Shown: positions 8,456 through 54,580 of the stretch, piece after piece
How the letters are laid out: each line of letters starts with the position of its first letter
Position numbering within the stretch: position 1 is the stretch's first letter
Source of the DNA: Octopus vulgaris
Taxonomy: Eukaryota
NCBI GenBank assembly: GCA_951406725.2
Contig: OX597821.1
Span: 8,990,001 to 9,054,000 of the forward strand
Direction: 5' to 3'
Length of the DNA stretch: 64,000 nucleotides
Notes under the pieces: model-generated
Database searches by the model: none
What the model was told of the DNA's origin: nothing
What the model saw: only the letters and a program-made list of their open reading frames with translations
Translations under genes and position numbers: made by a program

Positions 8456-8586
8456 ATTTTTACCATGTTCTGTCTAGAGGTAAGAGGAATTTTTTAATGT
8501 TCGCTGCCCGCATACATCATTGTCAGTATATATTTCAGTGAAGCTTTACATAGCGTTGTATCGTAATCCCTCCATATCTAGCAAAC

Positions 8587-8654: not shown

Positions 8655-8655
<1 letters not shown>

Positions 8656-8801
8656 CTTTGTAATTGTGATATTTTGCTGTTTTCCCTCCATATCAATGTG
8701 AATTATTTTTGAGTAAACACTCTTTGTAATTGTGATATTTTGCTGTTTTTCCCTCCATATCTACGTGAATTATTTTTGAGTAAACACTCTTTGTACATGT
8801 G
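8655..8801. repeat. Dispersed ~2-monomer patch of the 66-bp satellite
   Basis: tctttgtaattgtgatattttgctgttttccctccatatc...gaattatttttgagtaaacac matches the monomers at 26-37 kb. Confidence 0.9.
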
Positions 8802-9810
8802 AAAGTAGTGAGAAAGATAGAGTAAAGAAGAATCTAGTGACAGTGAAGAAGAGGAAGAAGAAAGTAGTGACAAAGACAGAGTAAGGGATCTGAGAGCTGT
8901 CATGAGAGAGTGACAGCAGCAGCGTCGATGAAGTAGGCAGATTAAGGAATCTGAGAGCAGATAGAGAGAATATTAGCAGTGCTAAGACAGATTAAGGGGA
9001 GTGATAGAGCAAGAGGTTTTTGGACAGTCGGTTTTTGGAAGGCAAAGCGAGCGGTCGGGATTTGAGGAGCGAGGATTTGGGAATTCGGGGCAAGAGTTTG
9101 GCAAGTTGGAGCTAGCAGTACTGAGAGAGATGAGGTGCAATATGAGGCGTTGGCTAATGTAAGGTACGTGAATTGTGTATTGATATGTGAAGAAACAGAA
9201 GGAAAAGGAATCGATGTATCGAAATGTTGAAAAAGAAATGAGACAGTAAAAAGGAATTTAATGAACAATGTGAATTGAGTAAAGGACTTGTCGATGTGTC
9301 GATTATCGAGTTGTGGTATTTATGTTCAGAATTGTGTTGATACATGTTACAAAAGAAAGTAGAAAAAGACTTTAAAGAACTGTGAACGTTATTCGTTTAA
9401 TTGGATTTGAACATTGATTTGTAACGTGAATTATTTGTATAATGAACATTGAACTGTTAGGCCTTTAATGTCCTTTGAAATGCTGTTGTTATTGAACTTG
9501 ATGTGTTGTTACCGGATGGTTATATTGTATCTGCATGTTGTTAAATGCTTTGATCTGTGGTATACCTGTATGATGTATTGAGTTGTTACTTGCATGTCCT
9601 CTTTTAAATGTACCTGATATGTATTTGATGTTGTAACAATTGATTGTCATATAAACTAGTTGTTAAATGTAAGCCAGTTGCCTTGCCTCTTTGTGTCTCT
9701 CTCGATTGCCTCTGTGCTGCTGCTGTGGTTGTTGTTGTTGTCTCTCTCCTCTCTGGGTTCCGTGGCGAACTTGCCCGTTCGGGCGAGCGACGGCAGGTGA
9801 TTCCGTAACA
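8797..9810. mobile_element. Possible solo LTR
   Basis: About 1 kb bounded by tgtgaaag...ccgtaaca (TG...CA), purine-rich body; no TSD visible. Confidence 0.25.
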
Positions 9811-11465
9811 ATATATATGAATGAATAAAAGGAATGGAAGACGTCGTTTTGTACAATGTATGTTTCAAAATGTATTGGGCCTGTATTATGTAATATTACA
9901 GCTTTTCATGCGCAATTACTTTGTCTTGCGAAATCATTTGTCGCTGTGAGTCATCCAAAGATATCAAATTATTTTGATTATCCCTGATGATTCCCAACTA
10001 TAGCAAATGAATAAGCAGAAAAAATAATCATATCAACAATATGAACAAAAAGAATGAGAACAGAAATAATTGTATCCAGAACGAAATCATCAACATCAAC
10101 GTCAAAAGCTCTGCAATAAATGTATGCTGTATCTTTCTCGAGAGCGGTTAACTAGTGGAAGATTAAAAAAAAAAGAATTTTCCGTATACAAAATATTGTT
10201 AAACCAGGATTAATGTCACTTATGAAAAGTTTCGAAAATCAACCAAATATATATAAATATATCTATCATAAACACAGATGACAGAAATAGAAAGATGCAC
10301 GGAAGACCTATTGCTCTCATGTCTACATGTATGCAAAGCTGTAGCTGCAATCTATAACAGTGAGGCGGAAAGTCTAAGAATGGCAACGTTAAATCTCATC
10401 TCCCAAAGTTTTATCAAAATACATTTACATATGCGTAGAACGTTAACTCGAACGTTCGGGCTTACAAGAAACTTAGGAATCTTTGTGAGCCGTGGCATGG
10501 GGTGATTGTAGAGGTCAAATTCATCCCCAAATTAACAGAATAGAGATTCTGATGGAATTATTGTTACTGGTCACCGCGGAAGAAGCCAATCACATTTTAG
10601 AATTTTCCTGTTTCGCGTTATGCAAGTAAATGCAGCTGATAATACAGGGCAGGGAAACCAACTGTTTTGTGTGTGAAAATTCAGATCACTTCAAAATTTT
10701 CTTTCCCACTCAAAGCAAGCACAGCACACTGTATTGTTACTATCAAATCCATTCCCACCTCTTTCTTCTGATCATGGTCTCAAATCAAAACCCCAGTTAG
10801 GAGATGAAATCCAGAGGAAATCGCTGTAAAAGGAATTTGTTGTGGAGAAAACAAAACAATCTGACCCAAGCTAATAGAAGTTGCTCCAAATTGAAGGCGA
10901 TGGGACGTGGCAAAGAAACAGAAATCTCGTCACCACAAAACCAATTGTTACAAACCCATTCACAGCCACAGATTCACAAGAAATCTCAAAAACAAAACAG
11001 AACACTCGAACAACACGATCAACAGTTCAATACTCACACACAGACCCCATTTATCAATTTCACTGTTGCTCAGAAGAGCAACATCGATTTGATTAAGGAA
11101 GTAGTCAGCTACAAAAATGTCTGGTATATGGGGCAAATTTGCACGAAATGTTCCCGAAAACACCCTTGGAAAGACAGTTTGCACCTGGTTTAAAATTTAG
11201 TGATCTCTTAAAAAGAATATGCTTAATGAATACCACAGTAAAATATTCTTGAGAAGCCTTTTCCTACTTAAACCCCAGTGGAAAAGAAGGCTGGATAAAT
11301 AGGGTCATGGTAAACATCTACCTATTCTGTTACCTGTTTCTGTTCTTGTAGTGTGTTGGTTGCGGGTTATGAAATGGCAGTGCAGTTACGATAATCCTTC
11401 AACCTTGACTTATGGACAATCTCACTGGAACCGTGTAGTTAGTTGGTTGTCTTCAACGTAAATAA

Positions 11466-11625
11466 TTCCATATCTACGTGAATTATTTTTGAGTAAACAC
11501 TCTTTGTAACTGTGATATTTGCTGTTTTCCTCCATATCAACGTGAATTATTTTTGAGTAAACACTCTTTGTACATGTGATATTTTGCCGTTTTTCCCTCC
11601 ATATCTATGTGAATTATTTTTGAGA
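11466..11625. repeat. Dispersed ~2.5-monomer patch of the 66-bp satellite
   Basis: Direct match to the satellite monomer. Confidence 0.9.
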
Positions 11626-11929
11626 AATAGGTTGTTCTGATTTCTTCAGATGTTTGTAAAATTTCCTCGAACACCTGCTCAGACGTTTCCAGTTGTCCGA
11701 CAAGTACCGATTGGGTTGCCCGCATGTGCCAGTGTGGACAAGGAGCAACTACAGCAGACCATCCAAATTATATCTAAACTGAGATTTTACGATACTACCG
11801 GATATGGTTATTGCAATATGCTCAAAATTCAAAGTAGTCGGCTACAGAAAACACGAATTGTGATCTAGCCGGCTGACTCAGTTATGGGAAGGTGAACTCA
11901 TCCTTATCGGCATGCAAAGTCTACGGGGA

Positions 11930-12439: not shown

Positions 12440-14020
12440 AGTGAAAACATCGGGCCCTGCATCACGGATGGTGAGTTGATGGTCCTGGATGTGAGCAGTG
12501 AGCGAATTGGTGCTTTTACACCCCAACTAAAGCAGGGCAGCCGGATTTCTTCAGACGTGTTGGGGTCTTCCTTGAAACACTCATTACTGATAGTGGGCGA
12601 TTGGAAGTCATCTTGGATGCACACCTCGATAGAGTGGGGCGAGCCGATCGGAGAGTTGAGAGTAAAAGTCTTACAAATTTGCGCAGCCGCTTCCAACTGG
12701 CTGACAGGTACCGACTGGATTTCTCGAAAGCGCCAATGTGGTCATGGGCAAATAGCATCGGGTCTTCAAGCACGTATCTAGATAGAGTATTCTGTAGGCC
12801 AGTAAATACAAGTAGCATACGTTATCCACAGTTCAAAGTCGTCGGCTACACACCACAAATTTGTGATCTACACAATTGACCTAGATAGGATACATTCAAG
12901 GTTGACTGTACTAAACAATACGTCGAGTATTTTTGCTGTTTTCCTCCATATCAACGTGAATTATTTTTGAGTAAACACTCTTTGTAATTGTGATATTTTG
13001 CTGTTTTCCCTCCATATCAACGTGAATTATTTTTGAGTAAACACTCTTTGTAATTGTGATATTTTGCTGTTTTCCCTCCATATCGTCAGGTGTAATCGTC
13101 AACAACCGATGGTTGATAGTCCTAAAAAAAGGCTATTGAATTATTTTTGAGAATAACACACTTTGTACATATGATATTTTGCTGTTTTTCCCTCCATATC
13201 TACATGAATTATTTTTGAGAATAACACACTTTGTACATATGATATTTTGCTGTTTTCCCTACATATGAGGCATTATGGTTTAGCAAGGAATTAGCCGTTG
13301 TGGAATCAAGAAGAGGGAAACCTAGTTTGGAAATTAGAAGTGGCACCTACTAGTGACATCGAGACCGATGTGTCGGTGGCGAGATTGGGTCTTGATAAAT
13401 TCTTCAATACCAAGCATGAATATTGCGTTGGGGACAGGCTCTTGACACTCGAGTTTAAGCAGATGTATGCGTAATTTCAGCTGCGCTTCACCCTACTCTA
13501 TGAAGCCGAAAATGGATTTCACCTTCTTCGTCGATGATATGCGGTGCTTCTCGGCCAGAGGTGTGTGGGTCTTACGAATTGACGATAACAGCCGAAGACA
13601 GCGGATACGATGACTAACTGCATAAGAAAAAAGTCTTTGGGGCTGGACGGTCTACCATGCGAGCTTTATTTTCATATGCCAGATTTCGGCGGTGATCTTT
13701 TGGCTGATATCTAGCGTAACTGGCAACAGAACGGAATGATCCCCAGTGCTGTAGCACGTGGTGTGGAGGCGCAGCTAAAAAAGCACCCGAACAAAAGGGG
13801 ACAAAATAGACAATTTTAGGCCCGTAACTCTACTAAACAGAGATTACAAGATTTTGGCCAAGTGTTAGCCAAGAGGTTTCCACTTGTCGATAAGCTGGTC
13901 GGTAACGTTCAGACATGCGTTATCCCAAGATAATCCTCCAACTCGCGCGTTACATCATAGAGAGGGCAGGTAGGGCACCTGGCATGAGTGGGGCCCTGAT
14001 CAATTTGGATCAATCAAAAG
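12440..14020 (+). mobile_element. Tx1/L1-clade LINE ORF2 relic (APE endonuclease plus RT N-terminal part), interrupted by satellite monomers
   Basis: LLIVGDW, LDAHLDRVG, LADRYR...WSWANS...YLDRV (endonuclease motifs); GLDGLP and NFRPVTLLN.DYKILAK (RT motifs), with frameshifts. Confidence 0.8.
12927..13262. repeat. Dispersed 66-bp satellite monomers (about 4, in two pieces) inside the LINE relic
   Basis: Direct match to both satellite variants (gagtaaacac and gagaataacac). Confidence 0.9.
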
Positions 14021-23280: not shown

Positions 23281-23495
23281 TCTAAGTGTTGGGTGTGATC
23301 TCCAACTGATGTTCTGTATCTTTCTGAGCAGGTTTGTATGTGTTCCATCTAGTGGATTTTCTCAGACAGCCGAAAACGTCCAGGTCTCTGATCCATAAAG
23401 TGTTCAAAATATCTTTTTACTTTGAACATGGGTGGAAGGTTTGAGCACTAGATACATACATACATACGTACATACGTACATACATACATACACAC

Positions 23496-25338: not shown

Positions 25339-25739
25339 GATGTATGTATATGTACATACATATGTACATACATCAGTCTCCCTAAATAGCTGACAAACTT
25401 TAAATCTCGTTTGAAACCCACATTGGAATATATTCTACAACGTAAGGAAGGTTGATCTTGCTGCACACCCTAACATCAGATATCAATTTCAGAGAAACAT
25501 CCATCGATTGATTACTCAAGAGTAAGAAACCTACTGAAAGATACTAGCTCACAGTTTTAAAGGTATTCAGTTACATGATTGTGCCAATTCCTACACCCCA
25601 CCATTACCTTACCCACGTCTTGTTGATTATCTGCCTCCATCGAATGAGGACTAGTTTGTGAGTAATAGCGGTAGTTGTGAAAAGAGAGATTGTTAGTAAT
25701 TTCATCTACTGCAGGATAGTGCGTGACTTCATGGTCACC

Positions 25740-25804
<65 letters not shown>

Positions 25805-25805
<1 letters not shown>

Positions 25806-25990
25806 CGTTATATAATTAGGGCTCAGTAAAATAACTTACTTTGCCACATACTGAATTTTTAGAAATAGCAGCCAAAATGTATATTTAGCCATTTCTACTA
25901 CTTTAAGAAAAGTCTCCCAGATAGTGTTTAATCAAAAATAATTCACGTAGATATGGAGAGAAAACAGCAAAATATCACATGTACAAAGAG
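25805..25990. mobile_element. (TA)n-anchored element terminus containing one inverted satellite monomer (25923-25989)
   Basis: About 120 bp of non-satellite sequence runs directly into agtgtttaatcaaaaataattcacgtagatatggagagaaaacagcaaaatatcacatgtacaaaga, the reverse complement of the array monomer. Confidence 0.7.
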
Positions 25991-28900
25991 TCTTTGTGCA
26001 TGTGATATTTTGGTGTTTTCCATCCATATCAACGTGAATTATTTTTGAGAATAACACTCTTTGTACATGTGATATTTTGCTGTTTTCCCTCCATATCTAC
26101 GAGAATTAATTTTGAGTAAACACTCTTTGTACATGTGATATTTTGCTGTTTTCCCTCCATATCAACGTGAATTATTTTTGAGTAAACACTCTTTGTACAT
26201 GTGATATTTTGCTGTTTTTCCCTCCATATCTACGTGAATTATTTTTGAGTAAACACTCTTTGTACATGTGATATTTTGCTGTTTTCCCTCCATATCAACG
26301 TGAATTATTTTTGAGTAAACACTCTTTGTACATGTGATATTTTGCTGTTTTCCCTCCATATCTACGTGAATTATTTTTGAGTAAACACTCTTTGTACATG
26401 TGATATTTTGCTGTTTTCCCTCCATATCTACGTGAATTATTTTTGAGTAAACACTCTTTGTACATGTGATATTTTGCTGTTTTCCCTCCATATCAACGTG
26501 AATTATTTTTGAGTAAACACTCTTTGTACATGTGATATTTTGCTGTCTTCCCTCCATATCAACGTGAATTATTTTTGAGTAAACACTCTTTGTACATGTG
26601 ATATTTTGCTGTTTTCCCTCCATATCAACGTGAATTATTTTTGAGTAAACACTCTTTGTACATGTGATATTTTGCTGTTTTCCCTCCATATCAACGTGAA
26701 TTATTTTTTGAGTAAACACTCTTTGTACATGTGATATTTTGCTGTTTTTCCCTCCATATCTACATGAATTATTTTTGAGAATAACACTCTTTGTACATAT
26801 GATATTTTGCTGTTTTCCCTCCATATCTACGTGAATTATTTTTTGAGTAAACACACTTTGTACATGTGATATTTTGCTGTTTTCCCTCCATATCTACATG
26901 AATTATTTTTGAGTAAACACTCTTTGTACATATGATATTTTGCTGTTTTCCCTCCATATCTACGTGAATTATTTTTGAGTAAACACTCTTTGTACATGTG
27001 ATATTTTGCTGTTTTCCCTCCATATCTACGTGAATTATTTTTGAGTAAACACTCTTTGTACATGTGATATTTTGCTGTTTTCCCTCCATATCTACGTGAA
27101 TTATTTTTGAGTAAACACTCTTTGTACATGTGATATTTTGCTGTTTTTCCCTCCATATCTGCATGAATTATTTTTGAGAATAACACACCTTGTACATATG
27201 ATATTTTGCTGTTTTCCCTCCATATCTACGAGAATTATTTTTGAGTAAACACTCTTTGTGCATGTGATATTTTGCAGTTTTTCCCTCCATATCTACGTGA
27301 ATTATTTTTGAGTAAACACTCTTTGTACATGTGATATTTTGCTGTTTTCCCTCCATATCTACGTGAATTATTTTTGAGTAAACACTCTTTGTACATGTGA
27401 TATTTTGCTGTTTTCCCTCCCTATCTACGTGAATTATTTTTGAGAATAACACACTTTGTACATGTGATATTTTGCTGTTTTCCCTCCATATCTACGTGAA
27501 TTATTTTTGAGTAAACACTCTTTGTACATGTGATATTTTGCTGTTTTCCCTCCATATCTACATGAATTATTTTTGAGAATAACACACTTTGTACATATGA
27601 TATTTTGCTGTTTTCCCTCCATATCTACGTGAATTATTTTTGAGTAAACACTCTTTGTACATGTGATATTTTGCTGTTTTTCCTCCATATCTACGTGAAT
27701 TATTTTTGAGAATAACACTCTTTGTACATGTGATATTTTGCTGTTTTCCCTCCATATCTACGTGAATTATTTTTTGAGTAAACACTCTTTGTACATGTGA
27801 TATTTTGCTGTTTTTCCCTCCATATCTACATGAATTATTTTTGAGAATAACACTCTTTGCACATGTGATATTTTGCTGTTTTCCCTCCATATCTACGTGA
27901 ATTATTTTTTGAGTAAACACTCTTTGTACATGTGATATTTTGCTGTTTTTCCCTCCATATCTACATGAATTATTTTTGAGAATAACACTCTTTGTACATA
28001 TGATATTTTGCTGTTTTCCCTCCATATCTACGTGAATTATTTTTGAGTAAACACACTTTGTACATGTGATATTTTGCTGTTTTCCCTCCATATCTACGTG
28101 AATTATTTTTGAGTAAACACACTTTGTACATGTGATATTTTGCTGTTTTCCCTCCATATCTACGTGAATTATATCTGAGTAAACACACTTTGTACATGTG
28201 ATATTTTGCTGTTTTTCCTCCATATCAACGTGAATTATTTTTGAGTAAACACTCTTTGTACATGTGATATTTTGCTGTTTTCCCTCCATATCTACGTGAA
28301 TTATTTTTGAGAAACACTCTTTGTACATGTGATATTTTGCTGTTTTCCCTCCATATCTACGTGAATTATTTTTGAGTAAACACTCTTTGTACATGTGATA
28401 TTTTGCTGTTTTCCCTCCATATCAACGTGAATTATTTTTGAGTAAACACTCTTTGTACATGTGATATTTTGCTGTTTTTCCCTCCATATCTACATGAATT
28501 ATTTTTGAGAATAACACACTTTGTACATATGATATTTTGCTGTTTTCCATCCATATCTACGAGAATTATTTTTGAGTAAACACTCTTTGTACATGTGATA
28601 TTTTGCTGTTTTCCCTCCATATCTACGTGAATTATTTTTGAGTAAACACACTTTGTACATGTGATATTTTGCTGTTTTCCCTCCATATCTACGTGAATTA
28701 TTTTTGAGTAAACACTCTTTGTACATGTGATATTTTGCTGTTTTCCCTCCATATCTACGTGAATTATTTTTGAGTAAACACTCTTTGTACATGTGATATT
28801 TTGCTGTTTTCCCTCCATATCTACGTGAATTATTTTTTGAGTAAACACTCTTTGTACATGTGATATTTTGCTGTTTTCCCTCCATATCAACGTGAATTAT

Positions 28901-31900
28901 TTTTGAGTAAACACTCTTTGTACATGTGATATTTTGCTGTTTTTCCCTCCATATCTACATGAATTATTTTTGAGAATAACACACTTTGTACATATGATAT
29001 TTTGCTGTTTTCCCTCCATATCTACGAGAATTATTTTTGAGTAAACACTCTTTGTGCATGTGATATTTTGCTGTTTTCCCTCCATATCAACGTGAATTAT
29101 TTTTGAGTAAACACACTTTGTACATGTGATATTTTGCTGTTTTCCCTCCATATCTACGTGAATTATTTTTGAGTAAACACACTTTGTACATGTGATATTT
29201 TGCTGTTTTCCCTCCATATCTACGTGAATTATTTCTGAGTAAACACACTTTGTACATGTGATATTTTGCTGTTTTCCCTCCATATCAACGTGAATTATTT
29301 TTGAGTAAACACTCTTTGTACATGTGATATTTTGCTGTTTTCCCTCCATATCTACGTGAATTATTTTTGAGTAAACACACTTTGTACATGTGATATTTTG
29401 CTGTTTTCCCTCCATATCTACGTGAATTATTTTTGAGTAAACACTCTTTGTACATGTGATATTTTGCTGTTTTCCCTCCATATCAACGTGAATTATTTTT
29501 GAGTAAACACTCTTTGTACATGTGATATTTTGCTGTTTTCCCTCCATATCTACGTGAATTATTTTTGAGTAAACACTCTTTGTACATGTGATATTTTGCT
29601 GTTTTCCCTCCATATCTACGTGAATTATTTTTGAGTAAACTCTCTTTGTACATGTGATATTTTGCTGTTTTCCCTCCATATCTATGTGAATTATTTTTGA
29701 GTAAACTCTCTTTGTACATGTGATATTTTGCTGTTTTCCCTCCATATCTACGTGAATTATTTCTGAGTAAACACTCTTTGTACATGTGATATTTTGCTGT
29801 TTTTCCCTCCATATCTACATGAATTATTTTTGAGAATAACACACTTTGTACATATGATATTTTGCTGTTTTCCCTCCATATCTACGAGAATTATTTTTGA
29901 GTAAACACTCTTTGTGCATGTGATATTTTGCCGTTTTCCCCTCCATATCTACGTGAATTATTTTTGAGTAAACACTCTTTGTACATGTGATATTTTGCTG
30001 TTTTCCCTCCATATCTACATGAATTATTTTTGAGAATAACACTCTTTGTACATATGATATTTTGCTGTTTTCCCTCCATATCTACGAGAATTATTTTTGA
30101 GTAAAACACTCTTTGTACATGTGATATTTTGCTGTTTTCCCTCCATATCTACGTGAATTATTTTTGAGTAAACACTCTTTGTACATGTGATATTTTGCTG
30201 TTTTCCCTCCATATCTACGAGAATTATTTTTGAGTAAACACTCTTTGTACATGTGATATTTTGCTGTTTTCCCTCCATATCTACATGAATTATTTTTGAG
30301 AATAACACTCTTTGTACATATGATATTTTGCTGTTTTCCCTCCATATCTACGTGAATTATTTTTTTAGTAAACACACTTTGTACAAGTGATATTTTGCTG
30401 TTTTTCCCTCCATATCTACATGAATTATTTTTGAGAATAACACTCTTTGTACATATGATATTTTGCTGTTTTCACTCCATATCTACGTGAATTATTTTTT
30501 TGAGTAAACACTCTTTGTACATGTGATATTTTGCTGTTTTCCCTCCATATCTACATGAATTATTTTTGAGAATAACACTCTTTGTACATGTGATATTTTG
30601 CTGTTTTCCCTCCATATCTACGTGAATTATTTTTGAGTAAACACACTTTGTACATGTGATATTTTGCTGTTTTCCCTCCATATCAACGTGAATTATTTTG
30701 AGTAAACACTCTTTGTACATGTGATATTTTGCTGTTTTCCCTCCATATCAACGTGAATTATTTTTGAGTAAACACTCTTTGTACATGTGATATTTTGCTG
30801 TTTTCTCTCCATATCTACGTGAATTATTTTGAGTAAACACTCTTTGTACATGTGATATTTTGCTGTTTTCCCTCCATATCAACGTGAATTATTTTTGAGT
30901 AAACACTCTTTGTACATGTGATATTTTGCTGTTTTCCCTCCATATCAACGTGAATTATTTTTGAGTAAACACTCTTTGTACATGTGATATTTTGCTGTTT
31001 TCCCTCCATATCTACGAGAATTATTTTTGAGTAAACACTCTTTGTACATGTGATATTTTGCTGTTTTCCCTCCATATCTACATGAATTATTTTTGAGAAT
31101 AACACTCTTTGTACATATGATATTTTGCTGTTTTCCCTCCATATCTACGTGTATTATTTTTTGAGTAAACACACTTTGTACATTTGATATTTTGCTGTTT
31201 TTCCCTCCATATCTACATGAATTATTTTTGAGATTAACACACTTTGTACATATGATATTTTGCTGTTTTCCCTCCATATCTACGTGAATTATTTTTGAGT
31301 AAACACTCTTTGTACATGTGATATTTTGCTGTTTTTCCCTCCATATCTACATGAATTATTTTTGAGAATAACACACTTTGTACATATGATATTTTGCTGT
31401 TTTCCCTCCATATCTACGTGAATTATTTTTGAGTAAACACTCTTTGTACATGTGATATTTTGCTGTTTTTCCCTCCATATCTGCATGAATTATTTTTGAG
31501 AATAACACACTTTGTACATATGATATTTTGCTGTTTTCCCTCCATATCTACGAGAATTATTTTTTGAGTAATAACACTCTTTGTACATATGATATTTTGC
31601 TGTTTTCACTCCATATCTACGTGAATTATTTTTGAGAATAACACTCTTTGTACATATGATATTTTGCTGTTTTCCCTCCATATCTACGTGAATTATTTTT
31701 GAGTAAACACTCTTTGTACATGTGATATTTTGCTGTTTTCCCTCCATATCTACGTGAATTATTTTTGAGAATAACACTCTTTGTACATATGATATTTTGC
31801 TGTTTTCCCTCCATATCTACGTGAATTATTTTTTGAGTAAACACTCTTTGTACATGTGATATTTTGCTGTTTTCCCTCCATATCTACATGAATTTATTTT

Positions 31901-34900
31901 GAGAATAACACTCTTTGTACATATGATATTTTGCTGTTTTTCCCTCCATATCTACGTGAATTATTTTTGAGTAAACACTCTTTGTACATGTGATATTTTG
32001 CTGTTTTCCCTCCATATCTACGTGAATTATTTTTGAGTAAACACTCTTTGTACATGTGATATTTTGCTGTTTTCCCTCCATATCTACGTGAATTATTTTT
32101 GAGTAAACACTCTTTGTACATGTGATATTTTGCTGTCCCTCCATATCTACATGAATTATTTTTGAGAATAACACTCATTGTACATGTGATATTTTGCTGT
32201 TTTCCCTCCATATCTACGTGAATTATTTTTGAGTAAACACTCTTTGTACATGTGATATTTTGCTGTTTTCCCTCCATATCTACGTGAATAATTTTTGAGA
32301 ATAACACTCTTTGTACATATGATATTTTGCTGTTTTCCCTCCATATCTACGTGAATTATTTTTGAGTAAACACACTTTGTACATGTGATATTTTGCTGTT
32401 TACCTCCATATCTACGTGAATTATTTTTTAGTAAACACACTTTGTACATGTGATATTTTGCTGTTTTCCCTCCATATCTACGTGAATTATATCTGAGTAA
32501 ACACACTTTGTACATGTGATATTTTGCTGTTTTCCCTCCATATCTACGTGAATTATTTTTGAGTAAACACTTTTGTACATGTGATATTTTGCCGTTTTTC
32601 CCTCCATATCTACGTGAATTATTTTTGAGTAAACACACTTTGTACATGTGATATTTTGCTGTTTTCCCTCCATATCTACGTGAATTATTTTTGAGTAAAC
32701 ACTCTTTGTACATGTGATATTTTGCTGTTTTTCCCTCCATATCAACGTGAATTATTTTTGAGTAAACACTCTTTGTACATGTGATATTTTGCTGTTTTCC
32801 CTCCATATCTACGTGAATTATTTTTGAGTAAACACTCTTTGTACATGTGATATTTTGCTGTTTTCCCTCCATATCTACGTGAATTATTTTTGAGTAAACA
32901 CTCTTTGTACATGTGATATTTTGCTGTTTTCCCTCCATATCTACGTGAATTATTTTTGAGTAAACACTCTTTGTACATGTGATATTTTGCTGTTTTCCCT
33001 CCATATCTACGTGAATTATTTCTGAGTAAACACTCTTTGTACATGTGATATTTTGCTGTTTTTCCCTCCATATCTACATGAATTATTTTTGAGAATAACA
33101 CTCTTTGTACATATGATATTTTGCTGTTTTCCCTCCATATCAACGTGAATTAATTTTGAGTAAACACTCTTTGTACATGTGATATTTTGCTGTTTTCCCT
33201 CCATATCTACATGAATTATTTTTGAGAATAATCAAAACTTTGTACATGTGATATTTTGCTGTTTTCCCTCCATATCATGAATATTCACCTTGTACATTCT
33301 GTCTGAGAATTATTTTTTGCTGTTTTCCCTCCAGTGAATTATTTTTGACACTCTTTGTAATGTGATATTTGTTCTCCATATCAGTGAATTATTTTGATAA
33401 ACACCTTTTACATGTGATATTGCATATCACGTGAATTATTTTGGAATGATACATTGATATTTTGCTGTTTTCCCTCCATATCTACGTGAATTATTTTTGA
33501 GTAAACACTCTTTGTACATGTGATATTTTGCTGTTTTCCCTCCATATCTACGTGAATTATTTTTGAGTAAACACTCTTTGTACATGTGATATTTTGCTGT
33601 TTTCCCTCCATATCTACGTGAATTATTTTTGAGTAAACACTCTTTGTACATGTGATATTTTGCTGTTTTCCCTCCATATCTACGTGAATTATTTTTGAGT
33701 AAACACTCTTTGTACATGTGATATTTTGCTGTTTTCCCTCCATATCTACGTGAATTATTTTTGAGTAAACACTCTTTGTACATGTGATATTTTGCTGTTT
33801 TCCCTCCATATCTACGTGAATTATTTTTGAGTAAACACTCTTTGTACATTGATATTTTGTACATGAATGATATTTTGTACTGTTTTTTGCCCCTCCATAT
33901 CTACGTGAATTATTTTTGAGTAAACACTCTTTGTACATGTGATATTTTGCTGTTTTCCCTCCATATCTACGTGAATTATTTTTGAGTAAACACTCTTTGT
34001 ACATGTGATATTTTGCCGTTTTCCCTCCATATCTACATGAATTATTTTTGAGAATAACACTCTTTGTACATATGATATTTTGCTGTTTTCCCTCCATATC
34101 TACGTGAATTATTTTTTGAGTAAACACTCTTTGTACATGTGATATTTTGCTGTTTTTCCCTCCATATCTACATGAATTATTTTTGAGAATAACACTCTTT
34201 GTACATGTGATATTTTGCTGTTTTCCCTCCATATCAACGTGAATTATTTTTGAGTAAACACACTTTGTACATGTGATATTTTGCTGTTTTCCCTCCATAT
34301 CTACGTGAATTATTTTTGAGTAAACACTTTTTGTAATTGTGATATTTTGCTGTTTTCCCTCCATATCTACGTGAATTATTTCTGAGTAAACACACTTTGT
34401 ACATGTGATATTTTGCTGTTTTTCCCTCCATATCAACGTGAATTATGTTTGAGTAAACACTCTTTGTACATATGATATTTTGCTGTTTTCCCTCCATATC
34501 TACGAGAATTATTTTTGAGTAAACACTCTTTGTACATGTGATATTTTGCTGTTTTTCCCTCCATATCTACATGAATTATTTTTGAGAATAACACTCTTTG
34601 TACATGTGATATTTTGCTCTTTTCCCTCCATATCAACGTGAATTATGTTTGAGTAAACACTCTTTGTACATATGATATTTTGCTGTTTTCCCTCCATATC
34701 TACGAGAATTATTTTTGAGTAAACACTCTTTGTGCATGTGATATTTTGCTGTTTTCCCTCCATATCTACGTGAATTATTTTTGAGTAAACACTCTTTGTA
34801 CATGTGATATTTTGCTGTTTTCCCTCCATATCTACGTGAATTACTTTTGAGTAAACACTCTTTGTGCATGTGATATTTTGCTGTTTTCCCTCCATATCAA

Positions 34901-37243
34901 GATGAATTATTTTTGAGTAAACACTCTTTGTACATGTGATATTTTGCTGTTTTCCCTCCATATCTACGTGAATTATTTTTGAGTAAACACTCTTTGTACA
35001 TATGATATTTTGCTGTTTTCCCTCCATATCTACATGAATTATTTTTGAGAATAACACTCTTTGTACATATGATATTTTGCTGTTTTCCCTCCATATCAAC
35101 GTGAATTATTTTTGAGTAAACACTCTTTGTACATATGATATTTTGCTGTTTTCCCTCCATATCAACGTGAATTATTTTTGAGTAAACACTCTTTGTACAT
35201 GTGATATTTTGCTGTTTTTCCCTCCATATCTACATGAATTATTTTTGAGAATAACACACATGGTACATATGATATTTTGCTGTTTTCCATCCATATCTAC
35301 GTGAATTATTTTTCAGTAAACATTCTTTGTGCATTTGATATTTCGCCGTTTTCCCCTCCATATCTATGTGAATTATTTTTGAGTAAACACACTTTGTACA
35401 TATGATATTTTGCTGTTTTCCCTCCATATCTACGTGAATTATTTTTGAGTAAACACTCTTTGTACATGTGATATTTTGCTGTTTTTCCCTCCATATTTAC
35501 ATGAATTATTTTTGAGAATAACACTCTTTGTACATGTGATATTTTGCTGTTTTCCCTCCATATCAACGTGAATCAATTTTGAGTAAACACTTTTTGTACA
35601 TGTGATATTTGGCTGTTTTCCCTCCATATCAACGTGAATTATTTTTGAGTAAACACTCTTTGTACATGTGATATTTTGCTGTTTTCCCTCCATATCTTGA
35701 ATTATTTTTGAGTAAACACTCTTTGTACATGTGATATTTTGCCCTCCATATCTACGTGAATTATTTTTGAGTAAACACTCTTTGTACATGTGATATTTTG
35801 CTGTTTTCCCTCCATATCTACGTGAATTATTTTTGAGTAAACACTCTTTGTACATGTGATATTTTGCTGTTTTCCCTCCATATCACTGAATTATTTTGAG
35901 TAAACACTCTTTGTACATGTGATATTTTGCTGTTTTCCTCCATATCTACTGAATTATTTTTGAGTAAACACTCTTTGTACATGTGATATTTTGCTGTTTT
36001 CCCTCCATATCTACATGAATTATTTTTGAGTAAACACTCTTTGTACATGTGATATTTTGCTGTTTTCCCTCCATATCTACATGAATTATTTTTGAGTAAA
36101 CACTCTTTGTACATGTGATATTTTGCTGTTTTCCCTCCATATCTACGTGAATTATTTTTGAGTAAACACTCTTTGTACATGTGATATTTTGCTGTTTTCC
36201 TCCATTCTACGTGAATTATTTTTGAGTAAACACTCTTTGTACATGTGATATTTTGCTGTTTTCCCTCCATATCAATGTGAATTATTTTTGAGTACATGTG
36301 ATATTTTGCTGTTTTCCCCCCATATCTACGTGAATTATTTTTGAGTAAACACTCTTTGTACATGTGATATTTTGCTGTTTTCCCTCCATATCAACGTGAA
36401 TTATTTTTGAGTAAACACTCTTTGTACATGTGATATTTTGCTGTTTTCCCTCCATATCTACGTGAATTATTTTTGAGTAAACACTCTTTGTACATGTGAT
36501 ATTTTGCTGTTTTCCCTCCATATCAACGTGAATTATTTTTGAGTAAACACTCTTTGTACATGTGATATTTTGCTGTTTTCCCTCCATATCTACGTGAATT
36601 ATTTTTGAGTAAACACTCTTTGTACATGTGATATTTTGCTGTTTTCCCTCCATATCTACGTGAATTATTTTTGAGTAAACACTCTTTGTACATGTGATAT
36701 TTTGCTGTTTTCCCTCCATATCTACGTGAATTATTTTTGAGAAAACACTCTTTGTACATGTGATATTTTGCTGTTTTCCCTCCATATCTACGTGAATTAT
36801 TTTTGAGTAAACACTCTTTGTACATGTGATATTTTGCTGTTTTCCCTCCATATCAACGTGAATTATTTTTGAGTAAACACACTTTGTACATGTGATATTT
36901 TGCTGTTTTCCCTCCATATCTACGTGAATTATTTTTGAGTAAACACTCTTTGTACATGTGATATTTTGCTGTTTTCCCTCCATATCTACGTGAATTATTT
37001 TTGAGTAAACACTCTTTGTACATGTGATATTTTGCTGTTTTCCCTCCATATCTACGTGAATTATTTTTGAGTATAACACTCTTTGTACATGTGATATTTT
37101 GCTGTTTTTCCCTCCATATCAACGTGAATTATTTTTGAGAATAACACACTTTGTACATGTGATATTTTGCTGTTTTCCCTCCATATCTACGTGAATTATT
37201 TTTGAGTAAACACTCTTTGTACATGTGATATTTTGCTGTTTTC
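25991..37243. repeat. 66-bp tandem satellite, about 170 monomers, open-ended at the gap
   Basis: Monomer tctttgtacatgtgatattttgctgttttccctccatatctacgtgaattatttttgagtaaacac; a longer variant with gagaataacac is interspersed. Confidence 0.98.
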
Positions 37244-37343
37244 NNNNNNNNNNNNNNNNNNNNNNNNNNNNNNNNNNNNNNNNNNNNNNNNNNNNNNNNN
37301 NNNNNNNNNNNNNNNNNNNNNNNNNNNNNNNNNNNNNNNNNNN
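37244..37343. other. Assembly gap (100 N)
   Basis: Run of N. Confidence 1.
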
Positions 37344-37685: not shown

Positions 37686-37714
<29 letters not shown>

Positions 37715-37716
<2 letters not shown>

Positions 37717-38737
37717 CATAAGGGACATTAGCCATTTGAATGTGGCTAGGGACAGGGCAGGGCGGTGGGGGTGTTACTGATGTATTTAGCCCCAGGCGAT
37801 CATCAACGTCACCAGATAGGCTGACACCATCACGGTGTCCTCTATCCTGCAAAGGGAGATCATTCCCCGAAGAAGCGGATGCCACATACGGACCCAGGGT
37901 TTCAAGGTGTTTGCCTATTGTCAACGTATGGCAGGCACCGCCCCTCGACGAACGACGACTCTCTGTGCAGGATATTTATATATAGATTTTCACGTAAATA
38001 CATTTACTGATTTCGAAAATCTGTTCGACAGCAATAATAATTCTCTAAACGAGATATAAACAGTAACTGCTCCATAACATAAGGGACATTAGCCATTTGA
38101 ATGTGGCTAGGGACAGGGCAGGGCGGTGGGGGTGTTACTGATGCATTTAGCCCCAGGCGATCATCAACGTCACCAGATAGGCTGACACGTGCCATACGTT
38201 GACAATAGGCAAACACCTTGAAACCCTGGGTCCGTATGTGGCATCCGCTTCTTCGGGGAATGATCTCCCTTTGCAGGATAGAGGACACCGTGATGGTGTC
38301 AGCCTATCTGGTGGCGTTGATGATCGCCTGGGGCTAAATGCATCAGTAACACCCCCACCGCCCTGCCCTGTCCCTAGCCACATTCAAATGGCTAATGTCC
38401 CTTATGTTATGGAGCAGTTACTGATGCATTTAGCCCCAGGCGATCATCAACGCCACCAGATAGGCTGACACCATCACGGTGTCCTCTATCCTGCAAAGGG
38501 AGATCATTCCCCGAAGAAGCGGATGCCACATACGGACCCAGGGTTTCAAGGTGTTTGCCTATTGTCAACGTATGGCACGTGTCAGCCTATCTGGTGACGT
38601 TGATGATCGCCTGGGGCTAAATGCATCAGTAACACCCCCACCGCCCTGCCCTGTCCCTAGCCACATTCAAATGGCTAATGTCCCTTATGTTATGGAGCAG
38701 TTACTGTTTATATCTCGTTTAGAGAATTATTATTGCT
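37715..38737. repeat. GC-rich ~220-bp unit in five direct or inverted pieces, forming a 708-bp palindrome (38030-38737)
   Basis: Arms 38030-38350 and 38417-38737 are reverse complements, including internal junctions. Confidence 0.92.
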
Positions 38738-45883: not shown

Positions 45884-45925
45884 CTGCCTTCAAACTCGTG
45901 ATTACTGTTATTGTTGCTTCGTGAC
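45884..45925 (-). CDS. Internal exon (42 nt, phase 1 to 1) GHEATITVITSLKA
   Basis: tccttgcag|...CAG|gtaaga strong sites; open in the phase left by the TM exon. Confidence 0.65.
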
Positions 45926-46043
45926 CTGCAAGGATTTAAAGTGAAACACGTAAGCTGAGATACCCATCGGAAACACACGCATACATACGTACACACACGC
46001 TCATTCATGCACACATGTACACACACACACACGCAGACACACA

Positions 46044-46132
<89 letters not shown>

Positions 46133-46461
46133 ACTGTAGGGAATAAAATGTTAAAATGTATTGCTTAAAGGTTTGGTCGGTGTTTAGTTACATATTTAGG
46201 AGTTGGTTATAAATTTACTTATTGAATTTATTTATCGGTATTGTTGTACATTCGGGAAATGTATTTGAAAGTTGTAGTTTCTATAGCATGTTTGTTCCCA
46301 AACAACACTTATTTTAGTGATATTGAAACCGCCGGATTGACTGTTACTTAACAACTGTAGAAACCATAATGATATCCGTGGGGCAGCTGACGATGGATGT
46401 ATATTGGAGTGTTGGTATGGCTGTTTTTATATATGTGGAGTAGTGTTATAACACATCCTTT

Positions 46462-46506
<45 letters not shown>

Positions 46507-46718
46507 TAAATATTAGGGAATAAATCCAAACTTACAGGGAAAAATCAGATTTAGGATTGAATCCAATTTTATAGTAAAATAATATATTATATTAAATTAG
46601 AGACAAAACCACTATTAGGCAAATCAAGCAATGAAAAACTTAATCCAATACAAAATATTATTTAATTTATATTATTTAAATATATAACAAAATTATTTAA
46701 AAAATATAATTAATATCA

Positions 46719-46781
46719 CACTACGGTCGTTTCATGCCTGCTAATATCTTCAAATTTTGAGTCGCAGTCATTCAACAGGTG
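46719..46781 (-). ncRNA. Mirror hammerhead copy with mutated core (CUGUUGA, loop GACC)
   Basis: Reverse-complement arm of 46817-46880. Confidence 0.65.
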
Positions 46782-46816
46782 GTTTAAATAAACCTCGCCA
46801 AGTTAAATATTTAAAC

Positions 46817-46880
46817 CACCTGATGAACGACTGCGACTCAAAAATTTGAAGATGTTAGCAGGCATGAAACGATCGTAGTG
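46817..46880 (+). ncRNA. Minimal type I hammerhead ribozyme with palindromic loop III
   Basis: cac-CUGAUGA-[extended stem II acgacugc...gcaggcau]-GAAAC-gauc-GUA-gug; ACGATCGT is self-complementary. Confidence 0.8.
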
Positions 46881-47011
46881 TGATATTAATTATATTTTTT
46901 TAATAATTTTGTTATATATTTAAATAATATAAATTAAATAATATTATGTATTGGATTAAGTTTTTCATTGTTTGATTTGCCTAATAGTGGTTTTGTCTCT
47001 AATTTAATATA

Positions 47012-47103
<92 letters not shown>

Positions 47104-48224
47104 TCATAAATAAGGCAAAATGCGTGCGTATTGTGAAAAAAATTATATTGTCAATGGACAATGTGTCCAATTTTTCGGCATATTTGGCATTAGAATTTTT
47201 TTCGTTTGCCCTTATTTATGAATTGTTTACAATTTTTACCTTTAAAGGTATTTTTTTAATATGCTGGCCATTGATAAAATTTTTGGGAAAATAATTTTTT
47301 CGAAAAAAAATTTATCCTATATTAGATATATATATATATACAGACACACACATACATACATACTTGCAATAATAAGTGCATATATGCAAACATGTATTAG
47401 CAAATACACACATACGTCGTTATCATGAAGCATGCATACGTAGATCGTTTAAAATAGGTCTGTAAACCTTTTCTTCAACAATAGGCTCTGACCAGTAACC
47501 AGTCTATTCTTGTGTTATAGTTAAGGAGAAGTATTTTTACTAATCAAGTTAGCATTAGTCAGGCGGAATTTTAAAAAGGTGGCATTTCGTATGTATGTTA
47601 ATGGCCAATCTTGCTAACAGAACCCTCAACTATACCAATATTTACACTTATACCACATCTGCGTGCTATCTAAGATGACGAAAATATTGTTCTCTCGTTG
47701 CATGGATAACACAGTTAAAGACATATTTGGGCTGTATGAAACTCGCAAAAACAACTGGAGCGTAGCTCATCCAAACTTTCTTTTTCGCAGCTAAATACTT
47801 TTGACAAGAGGCAACTTTCAGTGTCCATAAAAAGGCAGTCTCAAAAAGCAGCTATTATTCAAAGAATTGTGGTGGTACTTGGATTTTCGGCTTATTTTAA
47901 ATTTGATCAAACCGACACTCGCCACAATCGTTACCGTCTCACAACATTCATGCTGCTTCATATTGTAGTCCCAGAGGGATGATTGTATACACAAACGCAG
48001 GCGTACACACATACACAAACGCATACATACATACACATACACACACAAAAACGCATACATACACACATACACACAAAGGCGCGCACACACACACACTCAC
48101 ACACATTGGAACATAAGCATGCACACGCACAAACGCTTACATACACACATGCACACACACGCAGGCGCGCTAGCACACATACGTAGGCTATAATTATCGC
48201 AATTATTTTCCACCTTCTTTTGTA

Positions 48225-48580
48225 TATGATTATGGTGATGATATATTTGGATATTGTTATTTCGGATATTGTTATGTAATGATAATTACGATGATAATGA
48301 TGGCGATAAAGATGATTTATTGTGAAGATGATGTTGACAATGATGGGGTGATTCTAATGATGATGGAGGTCGGAGTGATGTTGATCATGATGATAAGGAG
48401 TATGATTATGATGATGATTATGTTGGCGAGGATGCTGATGGTGGCACTAGTACTGATAATATTGATGACTGTGTTAATAGAGATGATGGTAAAAATGTTG
48501 AAAATTGCTGCTGCTGCCGTCGCTTTGTTGCTGCTGCTACTGATGATGATGATGATGATTGTAGTGGTGATGATGGTAGT
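48225..48580. repeat. Degenerate (ATG)n/(CTG)n low-complexity tract
   Basis: Trinucleotide periodicity. Confidence 0.85.
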
Positions 48581-49384
48581 GAGAACATTTCGAATTATGT
48601 AAAGAGAGGAAATGCCATGATCTTGGTTCCTGATAATTAGAATTTCGATTAATATACAAATCAATCCAAATAAGTATTTTGAGTGTCCCATAAAATCCGT
48701 AGCAGAAAAATGTGATTTACGTCGAGAGACTCATATTGAGTATTTATGCAATTGTGATGTGATTAAACTTTGGGTGTGTAATTTGAAGATGAATTTTGCA
48801 TCGTAATCAGTCTACGTCTCCACAGTATTCTCTTTTGGAATCACTTACAGTGATTTATAGTAAGAGCAATATACTGCAGTAGATGATCGATATGCAGCCT
48901 TTTGAAATTTGAATGATGAAATTGAAAGTGAAATGCATTGTGTAACATTGTAACAAAATAACACAGGGTATGCGGATAATTCATCCGAATAAGGTAAATA
49001 AACTAGGTAACGAAAACAAAATGCTAATTAAATCGAAGCAAATACACTGAAGCGATAGACTTACAATAAAACTAATGCGAATGATCTTGCAAAATAATAT
49101 ATGCAGCTTAACATAGAATGATTTCTGAAGTCTAAGCAAATTGTTTCTAAAGAGAAAAAAGTGTATTATGTCTCCTTCTCTTTCTTACGTGAGATGATAT
49201 GGATACGAATATTAAACAATTCTGGTCCGTATATAGTACTTACACTTCGAAAGAATTGTATAAGGTCCCTAAATGTTGAGCATGTTGAAGAAATGCCTTC
49301 TATGTCGATAATAGTACTAGATTGCTATCAAAGGCCCTCGCAAAAGTATTGGATATAGAATGACATTTTTAATATCAACATCTA

Positions 49385-49700
49385 AGGCGGCAAGCTGGCA
49401 GAATTGTTAGCACTTCAGACAGATTGTTACCCACTCATTCGAAATATCTGGCCTTGTGCCAAAATTTGAAATGATAATTAGTTTGAATGTGAAGATGGCG
49501 AGGTGGCAAAATCATTAGCATGCCGGACAAATTACTTAGAGGTATTTCGTCCGTCTTTACGTTCTAAATTCTGGCGAGGTCGACTTTGCCTTTCAACCTT
49601 TCCGTATCGTCAAATTACGTACCAGTGAAACGCTGGGATCGATGTAATTCATTAATCCACTTCCCCAACATTTCAGGTCTGTACTATAGTAGAATGGATT
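49385..49700 (+). mobile_element. Two diverged Nin/Deu-type SINE copies
   Basis: ggcggcaagctggcagaa and ggcgaggtggcaaaatc heads, gtcgactttgcctttca core. Confidence 0.75.
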
Positions 49701-50451
49701 ATTCGTTTGACCATGACAAAATACAAGATGGATACTAGATAGAAAAAAGAAAAACCTCATAATAAAATTCTCTCATAACTTTCTAGTGAAGAAGATTTAA
49801 ATTCCTGATGGTCTGAGAGATTGGATGAAAGAAAAAGACATTTAGCTCATTTACATCACTGATAAGTAACACCAATAACGAGGAGGGTATCAATATCTAT
49901 AGCTAAAGATCAATATCTATAGCTAATTAAATGCACATTGTAACCTTGATGATGCCATCCTTCTACAATTAGTGCATTTAGGTCAACATTATACACTACT
50001 GTTCTTTATTTTCATACGAATAAGCTGCCGTTTCAAGGAAGTTTGACTCCTATTTCTTGGTGGTTGTAGATTATGTACGATAGATACGTGTTTGCTTTGT
50101 TTCAGTTATAGATATTTTTTCTGGTTATTCCATTCCAAGATCAGCTTTGATCGAGACAAACTATGAAGAAATATATTCCAGGTTTGACCGACTGCTTTTT
50201 CTTCATAAGATTCAATTTATAGGAAGTATTGTTTCTAATAACATATGTAACTTGAATAAAATTTGGCTTCCACTTAAAGCTAGAGAGAAATAATTGAAGT
50301 GATGATGATTATAAGGACGATGGTAACTAGATAGAGAAGAAGGATGGCGAAAATGATGAGCTGTTATGTGTGATGCACGTGGTGGTGGTGCAGGCTCTTA
50401 TGCGATAAATGTGATGTGTTGGTGTTCGTATTACGGAGGAGGATACTTTAC

Positions 50452-50558
50452 CTTGTCTTTGATTAGCAATAAGTAGTTTTACGCCCAACACCACTACTAC
50501 GCTCAAAATTATGATGCCTATTGCCACGGTTCCAATAATACAAATTTTTCGCGCTTTC
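50452..50558 (-). CDS. Exon (107 nt, phase 2 to 1) encoding a type II signal-anchor transmembrane helix
   Basis: ttttctttgcag|...CAAG|gtaaag; KARK-ICIIGTVAIGIIILSVVVVLGV-KLLIANQRQ, a basic cluster followed by 22 hydrophobic residues, bounded by the splice sites. Confidence 0.8.
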
Positions 50559-51129
50559 CTGCAAAGAAAACATATAGTTAAAATATTGCATGTATTTAGA
50601 AAGGGATGGAAATATTTCAATATATTTGTGATGCAAATGTAAGGCTTTAGTGAGAAAATAAAGGGATCGAAGCTTGACCATCAAGAAAACCAAATTTCTC
50701 TCCATGTAGCATACATAACAGCGTACTAACATTAATCAATAATCCTGATCCTCCTTTCTTTCCTTCTCTTTTTCTTTCTTTCTTTCTATCGTTGTTTGTT
50801 TGCTTCTTTCATTCATTTTCTTTTTCTTCCGTCTGATACAGTAGCAACAAAAAGTAGTTTGGTGCTTTGTCTTTAAGTTATTTCACCATTTATATATATA
50901 TATATATACATAGATATATACATATATATATACATAGATATATACATATATATATACATATATATATACATATATATATATATATGTACATATATTTATA
51001 TATATATATATATACATATATAGATATATACATTTTTTCTTTAGTTGTAGCTCAGAGATGCGGCCATGCTGAGGCACCGCCGTTTTGCTACATGTTATTA
51101 CTAAGAGCCTCCTCTAATGCGTGACACTT

Positions 51130-51585
51130 GGTGAAGAGTGGAGTTTGATAAGCTACACTCAATTGCAACTCTTGCCGTGAGGTAGGATCATCTGGGACTC
51201 ACGATAGGAAGAGGACCAGCTTTGATTTATAAACACCTATATCTACTTTGTGCAAGTTTCTCAGACTCTTTGGGAGACTATTGAAAAGCTGTGATCCCTT
51301 GAAACCCAGGCTGTTGCAGTAAATGGTCCTGAAGCGTGGTGGCATTGCTGGGATATTTGGCACTATGAAGTGTCGTCCCGCCCTGGCATTGGTGTAGCTT
51401 TCAATGGCAACATTTGGCCCGAATCCTTCCAGGATCTTTCAGATATATATTACTGCATACCTCTCCCGTCTTCTCTCCAGGGAGTAGAGTCTTAACAGTT
51501 TCAACCTTTCCCAGTACCTGAGCTGTTGCAAAGAGATGATCTTCTTTGTGACTCTTCTCTGGATTGCTTCAAGATCCGCTGTTAA
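51130..51585 (-). mobile_element. CR1/L2-group LINE ORF2 C-terminal relic
   Basis: [12 protein letters not shown]...[20 protein letters not shown]. Confidence 0.85.
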
Positions 51586-51668
51586 TTATATATATATACT
51601 TATACACAAACACACACACACACACACACACATACACACACACATATATATATATATGTATATATATG

Positions 51669-51725
<57 letters not shown>

Positions 51726-52297
51726 ATATATGTATATATATATATATGTATATATATATGTATATATATATATGTATGTATGTATATATGTATACTTATA
51801 TATGTATATATATGCATATATATATACATAAATATACATACATATATATATATGCATATATATAGTATATATATATACACACATATATATGTATATATAT
51901 ATACATATATACATATATATACATATATATATATACACATAAATATACATATTTATATATTTATATATACATACATATATATATATACATACATATATAT
52001 ATTCATACATATATATATATATACATATATATATACATATATATATATATATACATATATATATACATACATATATATACAAAGATATATTTACATACAT
52101 ATATATATATATATATATATACATATATACATATACATATGTATATATAAAAATATATATATATATATACATTATATATACATATATATACTTATATATA
52201 TATATATATATATAAACAATTGCAGCGTGGAAGGTGTTTATAAGCCATTTAAGAAACACACAAAAGCCGTTCGATTCACTTCAACATTTAAGTTTAA

Positions 52298-52347
52298 TTT
52301 GTCAAAATATTTTCGTCGCTAAAATACGCGACCTGTTCACTGACAAA
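52298..52347 (-). ncRNA. Hammerhead-topology RNA with non-canonical core
   Basis: uuuguca-GUGAACAG-gucgc...gcgac-GAAA-auau-UU-ugacaaa. Confidence 0.45.
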
Positions 52348-52384
52348 GTCCGTTCAGTGAACAGGTAGGTTCCAAGAGGAATTC

Positions 52385-52880
52385 ACACAAAATCTCCTTG
52401 CAAGTGTCATGATTCTTGGTGAAGGACATGTGATGCCTCCTCAACCTTTTCCAAAAGGCCTTAGAATGAATGCTGCTGCGTAAATTGACGTTCTGAATAA
52501 AGTTAAGATCAACAGTGTATGCAATGGAAGGACTTATGCCTTTCAACAAGTTTGTGTACCATCACACAAGGCTCAAATGATACAAGAATGGATAACCGAC
52601 AATTTGCATGATCACATCATTCCCAACATTTCGCCTCCTATGTCTCCAGATCTCAATCCACTGGACTACTATGTATGGAGCGTTTTTGAGAGAAATGTCC
52701 ACCTCATAGCACCCCACCATAGCACCCCCATAGCATCCCCCATAACACCAAAGATTCTTTGAAAGCTGCCATAGTTCGAGTCATGTCCGACATGAACAAA
52801 GACAACCTAATACGAGCTTGTAAACGATCTCGACCTTGCGTAGCGTTAGTTATTGTTGCTTGTGGTGGTGTTTTTGACTG
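52385..52880 (+). mobile_element. maT/Tc1-type transposase C-terminal relic
   Basis: FPKGLRMN, YAFQQ...SHKAQMIQEW, PPMSPDLNPLDYYVW, NLIRACKR. Confidence 0.8.
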
Positions 52881-53683: not shown

Positions 53684-53829
<146 letters not shown>

Positions 53830-53837
53830 TATACATA

Positions 53838-54508: not shown

Positions 54509-54580
<72 letters not shown>

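Follow-up and report, generated by a model that had tools for sequence, protein, structure and literature searches.

A 66-bp satellite array joined head to head with the end of a (TA)n-anchored repeat, probably a mobile element, in Octopus vulgaris

Penelope-type reverse transcriptase is the closest kin of telomerase. Full-length Penelope-like elements (PLEs) of the EN+ kind encode it together with a GIY-YIG endonuclease, and a direct pLTR formed by a partial tandem and a tail of 30-40 bp are further marks of the group. PLEs are described as preferring (TA)n targets, as being truncated at their 5' ends and as carrying an adjacent inverted copy (PMC8557442), and head-to-head palindromic junctions have been interpreted as products of self-priming (PMC3846280). 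Canonical PLEs and Hydra carry a hammerhead in the pLTR, while Naiads are described as being without canonical hammerheads (PMC8557442). The origin of satellites from parts of mobile elements is an established kind of event, with cases reported in PMC4209133, PMC4079207, PMC7492417 and PMC13553610. In the open-licence literature we found no description of an octopus satellite of this kind; repeat libraries (Dfam, Repbase) may contain the family of the element end described below.

The window analyzed here is a stretch of 64,000 nucleotides from Octopus vulgaris (contig OX597821.1, positions 8,990,001 to 9,054,000). A first-pass annotation had reported at 25805-26060 a (TA)n tract, an element end, one inverted monomer and a fold-back leading into an array of about 170 copies and more than 11 kb. 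Both the layout and the size are borne out by the assembly, in which a 117-bp non-satellite head is followed by exactly one inverted monomer, a turn at 25990 and 170.5 copies of a 66-bp unit that run up to a gap of 100 Ns. The features of the locus are as follows.

25743..25805, no strand: (TA)32 microsatellite, the likely insertion target
25806-25922: head, 117 bp of non-satellite sequence between (TA)32 and the inverted monomer
25806..25877, minus strand by analogy: first part of the head, a high-copy terminal segment common to several subfamilies of a (TA)n-anchored repeat (contig alignment)
25878..25922, minus strand: second part of the head, a middle segment specific to a subfamily, through which terminus and monomer are linked (contig alignment)
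25923..25989, minus strand: single monomer contiguous with the head, in the opposite orientation to the array
25984..25996, no strand: palindromic turn CAAAGA-G-TCTTTG with a 1-nt centre at 25990, seen in the assembly only
25991..37243, plus strand: 66-bp satellite array of 170 monomers (170.5 copies) in a single orientation, 11.25 kb
37244..37343, no strand: 100-N scaffold gap that hides the right end of the array, so that 11.25 kb is its visible part

The array is satellite DNA in the usual sense, being long, homogeneous, head to tail and noncoding, and array junctions are present in contigs of three public runs (X1, X2 and X3). Its monomers differ from the commonest monomer at a mean of 2.0 positions, as measured on the 156 of 170 that are 64-68 bp long; 14 noisy monomers were dropped. 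Patches near 33240-33460 and 33840-33900 are noisy in a way that resembles uncorrected long-read consensus. No clear higher-order period was found in the array, since the distances between monomers were 3.07-3.74 at lags 1-15, with the lowest value at lag 2. The monomer itself, taken at 26323-26388, consists of a 32-bp and a 34-bp half that have diverged from each other (34/66 matches at either shift). Long open frames run through the monomer on the minus strand only, and a coding reading of the array was rejected, since these frames yield just repeat-driven Pfam matches. In folds of a monomer dimer, a 4-bp GAGT/ACTC stem is predicted across the unit junction.

The turn falls 1-2 nt from the unit boundary as set by the head junction, and the junctions of turn with array and of head with monomer have a 3-nt AGT microhomology in common. 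Across the whole window, 14-mers of the reverse-strand monomer are confined to 25932-25991, and the array contains none. The two arms are identical in 60/68 columns, far above chance, and the inverted monomer is just two changes away from the commonest array monomer (at 25931 and 25959, where its letters are nearly absent from the public contigs, which have the other letter in almost all of their depth). The first array monomer, however, is not the mirror image of the inverted one: the two differ at 8 positions, and 119/155 other monomers are closer to the inverted monomer. Three of its variants are absent from the inverted monomer and recur in 5, 29 and 30 of the 169 interior monomers, none of which has all three together. 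Since an exact fold-back copy should start out identical, these differences suggest either that already diversified monomers were joined or that the monomer at the array edge was converted later.

Other copies of the head and monomer were sought in public contigs, which took the place of a genome-wide comparison. Seven of the 24 runs listed contained part of the stretch and none contained half of it (share of sampled words, at most 0.35). We aligned contigs of four runs from four studies, X1, X2 and X7 from organism A and X3 from organism B, to 25800-26058 at 80% likeness, leaving out X4, X5 and X9 (0.05 share). These runs may come from other individuals or species, and their contigs show presence, not absence; none of the runs that contain part of the stretch is listed as RNA, and X7, which was only guessed to be RNA, was not taken as evidence of transcription. 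Summed contig depth, which does not equal copy number, was 44-48, 344-376, 439-493 and ~10 thousand over the terminus (25827-25853) in the four runs, and, in the same order of runs, 1.0-1.3, 13-17, 23-30 and 0.5-0.8 thousand over the middle segment (25881-25916) and 68-81, 676-1187, 208-298 and 1.2-1.5 thousand over the monomer (25953-25979). The segment 25806..25877 was thus deeply covered in 4/4 runs, and 25878..25922 had lower cover than the terminus, with bridging contigs that carry 8-21 other letters. Loose ends of contigs are TA- or AT-rich before 25804-25839 (among the 24 rows listed of 144) and diverge from one another behind 25876-25877, which indicates a terminus common to several subfamilies. 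The head is therefore a repeat of a mobile family, as the first-pass annotation had supposed, and not single-copy sequence: it is multi-copy and (TA)n-anchored in four runs and two organisms.

The monomer region travels with the head in these other copies. Among the 32 pieces listed (of 2,197), six bridge the head/monomer junction with at least 31 letters on each side (X2 records 13-15, X3 records 22-23 and X7 record 31); since each carries 8-21 other letters, they are other copies of the junction. The junction is overlapped by 11 further listed pieces, with 15-29 letters on the short side and, in X1 record 5, without a difference. A second junction subtype, defined by the linked changes T>C at 25922, G>A at 25924 and T>A at 25928, is present in all four runs (7-17 contigs per run at 25922). 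Position 25928 is covered by array contigs as well, and there T is dominant in X1, X2 and X3, so that the arrays match the subtype of the window and not the second one. A contig of X1 and another of X2 follow the terminus as far as 25877 and match again from 25935. Behind 25991/25995 the listed loose ends continue into a next monomer (4 contigs in X1, 23 in X2 and 10 in X3), so arrays exist in both organisms; X7 has other letters behind 25921, 25954 and 25964. X2 record 13 continues for 190 letters, and the listed contigs are too short to span the head plus two monomers of the same orientation. Across 25990, no piece among the 32 listed (of 2,197) extends for 31 letters in both directions, and none covers the whole aligned stretch, which is no evidence either way on the turn.

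From this linkage, the monomer is likely a segment of the (TA)n-anchored element family. Because its region occurs in two element subtypes and the arrays resemble only one of them, derivation of the satellite from the element is simpler than capture of the satellite by the element. The first-pass annotation had gone further, taking the monomer for a piece of a Penelope-like pLTR and expecting dispersed copies that run on into a hammerhead. Of this, the mobile-element end stands, its linkage to the monomer being found in other, diverged copies in two organisms, and so does the multi-copy head; a hammerhead-bearing continuation was not seen, as there is no core in the head or monomer and the listed loose ends enter another monomer. 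In metagenome scans, a monomer 30-mer had 0 matches, and six matches of a head 20-mer (L001-L006), whose likeness to head plus monomer went no further, were taken as chance.

The element is likely a Penelope-type retrotransposon, judging from its geometry and its (TA)n target. The insertion bias of PLEs is seen in the (TA)32 that adjoins the head and in the TA- or AT-rich letters that precede other copies, and their inverted segment at a truncated end, with a palindromic head-to-head junction, is seen at 25990, in the assembly only and with the strand set by analogy. The published Naiad_Obim 3' end (supplement of PMC8557442) matches the window at 46183-46467, by eye and with three exact 20-mers, and ends there in (TA)n, so PLE 3' ends do adjoin (TA)n in this genome. 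We read 25806..25877 as an element 3' end by analogy with this Naiad end and with the element at 46.5 kb, the strand following from the same comparison. No reverse transcriptase or GIY-YIG sequence was found linked to the head, and Pfam detected no GIY-YIG domain in 17 of the 130 listed open reading frames of the window. The supplement of PMC8557442, which covers few octopus families, was searched for ten short motifs of the head and monomer by exact match on line-wrapped text; eight had 0 matches, and two, of 9-10 nt, had a single match apiece in surroundings that resemble neither the head nor the monomer, so that neither of these was found among the published octopus PLE consensus sequences. 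No significant similarity was found between the head terminus and the further ends next to (TA)n in the window (best P values, 0.002 and 0.03 among 38 ends, uncorrected), and a terminal motif common to the head and the 46.5- or 53.8-kb ends was discarded as not significant over the 38 tests.

Hammerheads were sought by several routes. No core was found in 25806-26058 or in the monomer, beyond which one could lie, and neither strand of the monomer dimer contains CUGANGA; for the TTGAGAA variant, which 34 monomers have, the dimer tested contains no GAAA on the same strand. With the Rfam hammerhead models, which may miss minimal variants, there was no match at the gathering score in the window and none at E values up to 10 in 45900-54600 or 25700-26500. 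Rfam miRNA matches at the turn were set aside as generic hairpins below the gathering score. A strict scan for minimal hammerheads returned nothing at 46.5, 52.3 or 53.8 kb and one unrelated match at 23321-23408.

The loci at 46.5, 52.3 and 53.8 kb had been cited as repeating the layout of (TA)n, element end and inversion with hammerheads or similar folds, which holds well for one of them and partly for another. At 46.5 kb there is a true head-to-head inversion between (TA)n tracts; its arms match at 191/203 positions, and both contain a minimal hammerhead-like motif with the core UUGAAGA in place of CUGANGA:

46720-46770 and 46846-46880: minimal hammerhead-like motifs in the two arms of the 46.5-kb element, with a one-pair helix III and a GATC or GACC loop

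Judged from the sequence, activity of these motifs is doubtful. The 52.3-kb locus has just a 13-bp stem and a degenerate motif (GUGAACA ... GAAA). At 53.8 kb, 95-bp arms (86/97) surround a spacer of ~155 bp in which, as in the rest of that locus, no TGAN[GC]A core was found on either strand. As a PLE-like analogue, 37713-38737 is better than either 52.3 or 53.8 kb; it is a young nested tandem and inverted structure with ~99% identity between its parts and (TA)n on both sides. The window is rich in repeats generally, with microsatellites, SINE-like repeats, decayed transposases and LINE remains. The 5'-truncated Naiad PLE 3' end at 46131-46467, like Naiad_Obim, ends in (TA)n and adjoins the inverted 46.5-kb element, and 57950-64000 holds at least three tandem copies of a 1.7- to 2.6-kb segment at 91-94% identity.

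Satellite sequence also occurs without the head. Four pieces of 130-161 bp lie within 5 kb of sequence, 13-17 kb upstream of the array and on the same strand:

8655..8802, plus strand: 2.2 units with an AATT variant, after (TA)n
11467..11627, plus strand: piece within a decayed LINE endonuclease region
12931..13084, plus strand: piece with the AATT variant within a second decayed LINE copy
13137..13266, plus strand: piece in that same LINE copy, 52 bp further on

Three of the four interrupt decayed LINE copies. Relative to the homologues P0001, P0022 and P0035, ~16-18 codons seem, by eye, to be missing at the second and third pieces and ~2 at the fourth, and no clear target-site duplications were found at any of the four. 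The pieces could be either repair-associated captures or polishing artefacts. Their AATT variant is present in 1 of ~170 monomers of the long array and in 5 contigs of X2, which makes it likely that other arrays exist. A 14-bp monomer word at 8567-8580 stands just ahead of the (TA)n that precedes the first piece, as if (TA)n had split a monomer, and right behind that piece a segment of ~1 kb (8798-9812) starts with TGT and ends with ACA, possibly a solo LTR. An 18-bp match at 2407-2424 had no convincing extension and was dropped.

We favor the explanation that the satellite is element derived, with a probability of roughly 0.5. The 66-bp monomer would come from an element anchored in (TA)n, probably from the 3' region of a PLE, and would have become tandem in one subfamily, likely before the present locus formed. 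Such a repeat-bearing subfamily could have gained the tandem unit near the element 3' end, for which the AGT microhomology would suffice. A 5'-truncated copy of it may then have inserted into (TA)n; self-priming or a template switch would have reversed its direction at the first unit boundary and so joined already diversified monomers head to head, and ordinary unequal exchange or slippage could have brought the right arm to more than 11 kb. The GAGT/ACTC hairpin predicted across every unit junction offers a second possible reason for a turn in phase with the unit. Besides the negative results given above for a linked reverse transcriptase, a hammerhead core, a published match and a terminus like other (TA)n-adjacent ends, two observations count against this explanation: a random turn within 1-2 nt of a unit boundary is a ~1-in-20 coincidence, and a fold-back at the predicted hairpin would leave 7 more centre bases than are seen.

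If, as the first-pass annotation proposed, an element end with a single monomer folded back at this very place, the initial array would have arisen here through repeated template jumps or later exchange and would be the ancestor of every other array; the phase of the turn would suit such an origin. Exactly one monomer between head and turn, the AGT link between the two junctions, the two changes that separate the inverted monomer from the commonest one and the diverged monomer region of the second element subtype all agree with it. That claim is nevertheless poorly supported, as the same type of junction recurs in other copies, both organisms have arrays, the array opens with a monomer that shows three pool variants in place of mirror identity, and the AATT variant points to arrays elsewhere. 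We consider a birthplace at 25990 distinctly unlikely; the site is probably one of many junctions between head and satellite. Very unlikely, too, is the fuller version in which a Penelope-type reverse transcriptase primed itself at the hairpin, recopied the first 66 template bases and founded here a ribozyme-free satellite that spread in two octopus species, and the evidence leans against reiterative, telomerase-like synthesis. A foldback DNA transposon of the Tetris/TIR-220 type, in which head and monomers form the left terminal inverted repeat, the array is the expanded right one and the gap hides an inverted head, predicts the layout as far as the gap and has its precedent in Drosophila virilis (PMC4079207). 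We find it unlikely, given the 1-nt centre with no internal domain, the variable, TA-like letters in place of a sharp end before the terminus, the several subfamilies that diverge behind 25877 and the company that palindromic centres beside (TA)n keep with PLE-like ends in this window (46.5 kb). No second head was found within the window, and the right end of the array lies in or beyond the gap.

The headless pieces in unrelated LINE remains suggest that the satellite moves without the head, as would be expected if an older, independent satellite had been taken up by the element through a template switch onto satellite DNA or RNA, leaving a chimera at the edge of an array. The route is a recognized one (PMC13553610), and the two diverged halves of the monomer hint at a tandem history of its own; yet a monomer region in a second, diverged subtype that the arrays do not match fits the path from element to satellite better, and capture is quite improbable. 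Finally, the turn may be a fold-back chimera or a misjoin at a repeat, given that the array runs into a scaffold gap and contains noisy patches like those of uncorrected long-read consensus. A fold-back read would mirror itself, head included, whereas here 8 differences separate the arms, several of which are array variants, each arm has private changes, and comparable inversions within the genome are normal for PLEs; an artefact of this sort therefore seems very improbable.

This locus is a clean, testable cephalopod case of a satellite probably derived from a (TA)n-anchored element: the satellite matches one element subtype but not its sister, and their junction is still intact. The general point, that satellites derive from elements, is ordinary, and only reiterative synthesis would surprise a specialist; should the element prove to be a PLE, its ends would have given rise to satellites by a hammerhead-free route, beside that of the retrozymes. 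The animal non-LTR retrozymes (bioRxiv 10.64898/2026.07.22.740005; PMC4209133) resemble the array as tandem repeats, in their case traced to PLE pLTR sequence, but have a type I hammerhead in each unit; the 66-bp unit has none, so a route through self-cleavage and rolling circles is unsupported here. The Helentron central repeats of Crassostrea gigas (Cg_HINE; PMC7492417) are similar as molluscan satellite-like arrays dispersed by nonautonomous elements, but are described as lying between two flanking modules, in place of a (TA)n anchor and a head-to-head turn. Tetris/TIR-220 of D. virilis (PMC4079207) resembles the locus in the amplification of an internal element repeat to kilobase-sized arrays that, in an inverted layout, remain attached to the end of the element; as reported, it is a two-ended DNA foldback element with target duplications of 8-10 bp, whereas one end is seen here, on a microsatellite. 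Closest are the (TA)n-preferring octopus PLEs of PMC8557442 (Naiad_Obim, Naiad_Ovul, Naiad_Omin and Hydra-1_Obim). These differ in that no match to the head or monomer came from exact-motif searches of their published sequences, that no open reading frame is linked to this locus and that the inverted arm is a 66-bp array and not a partial pLTR, but they have in common with it the (TA)n anchor, the one-ended truncated copy and the adjacent inverted segment, and the Naiads among them are, in the same report, without canonical hammerheads, a core of which was not found in the head or monomer here either.
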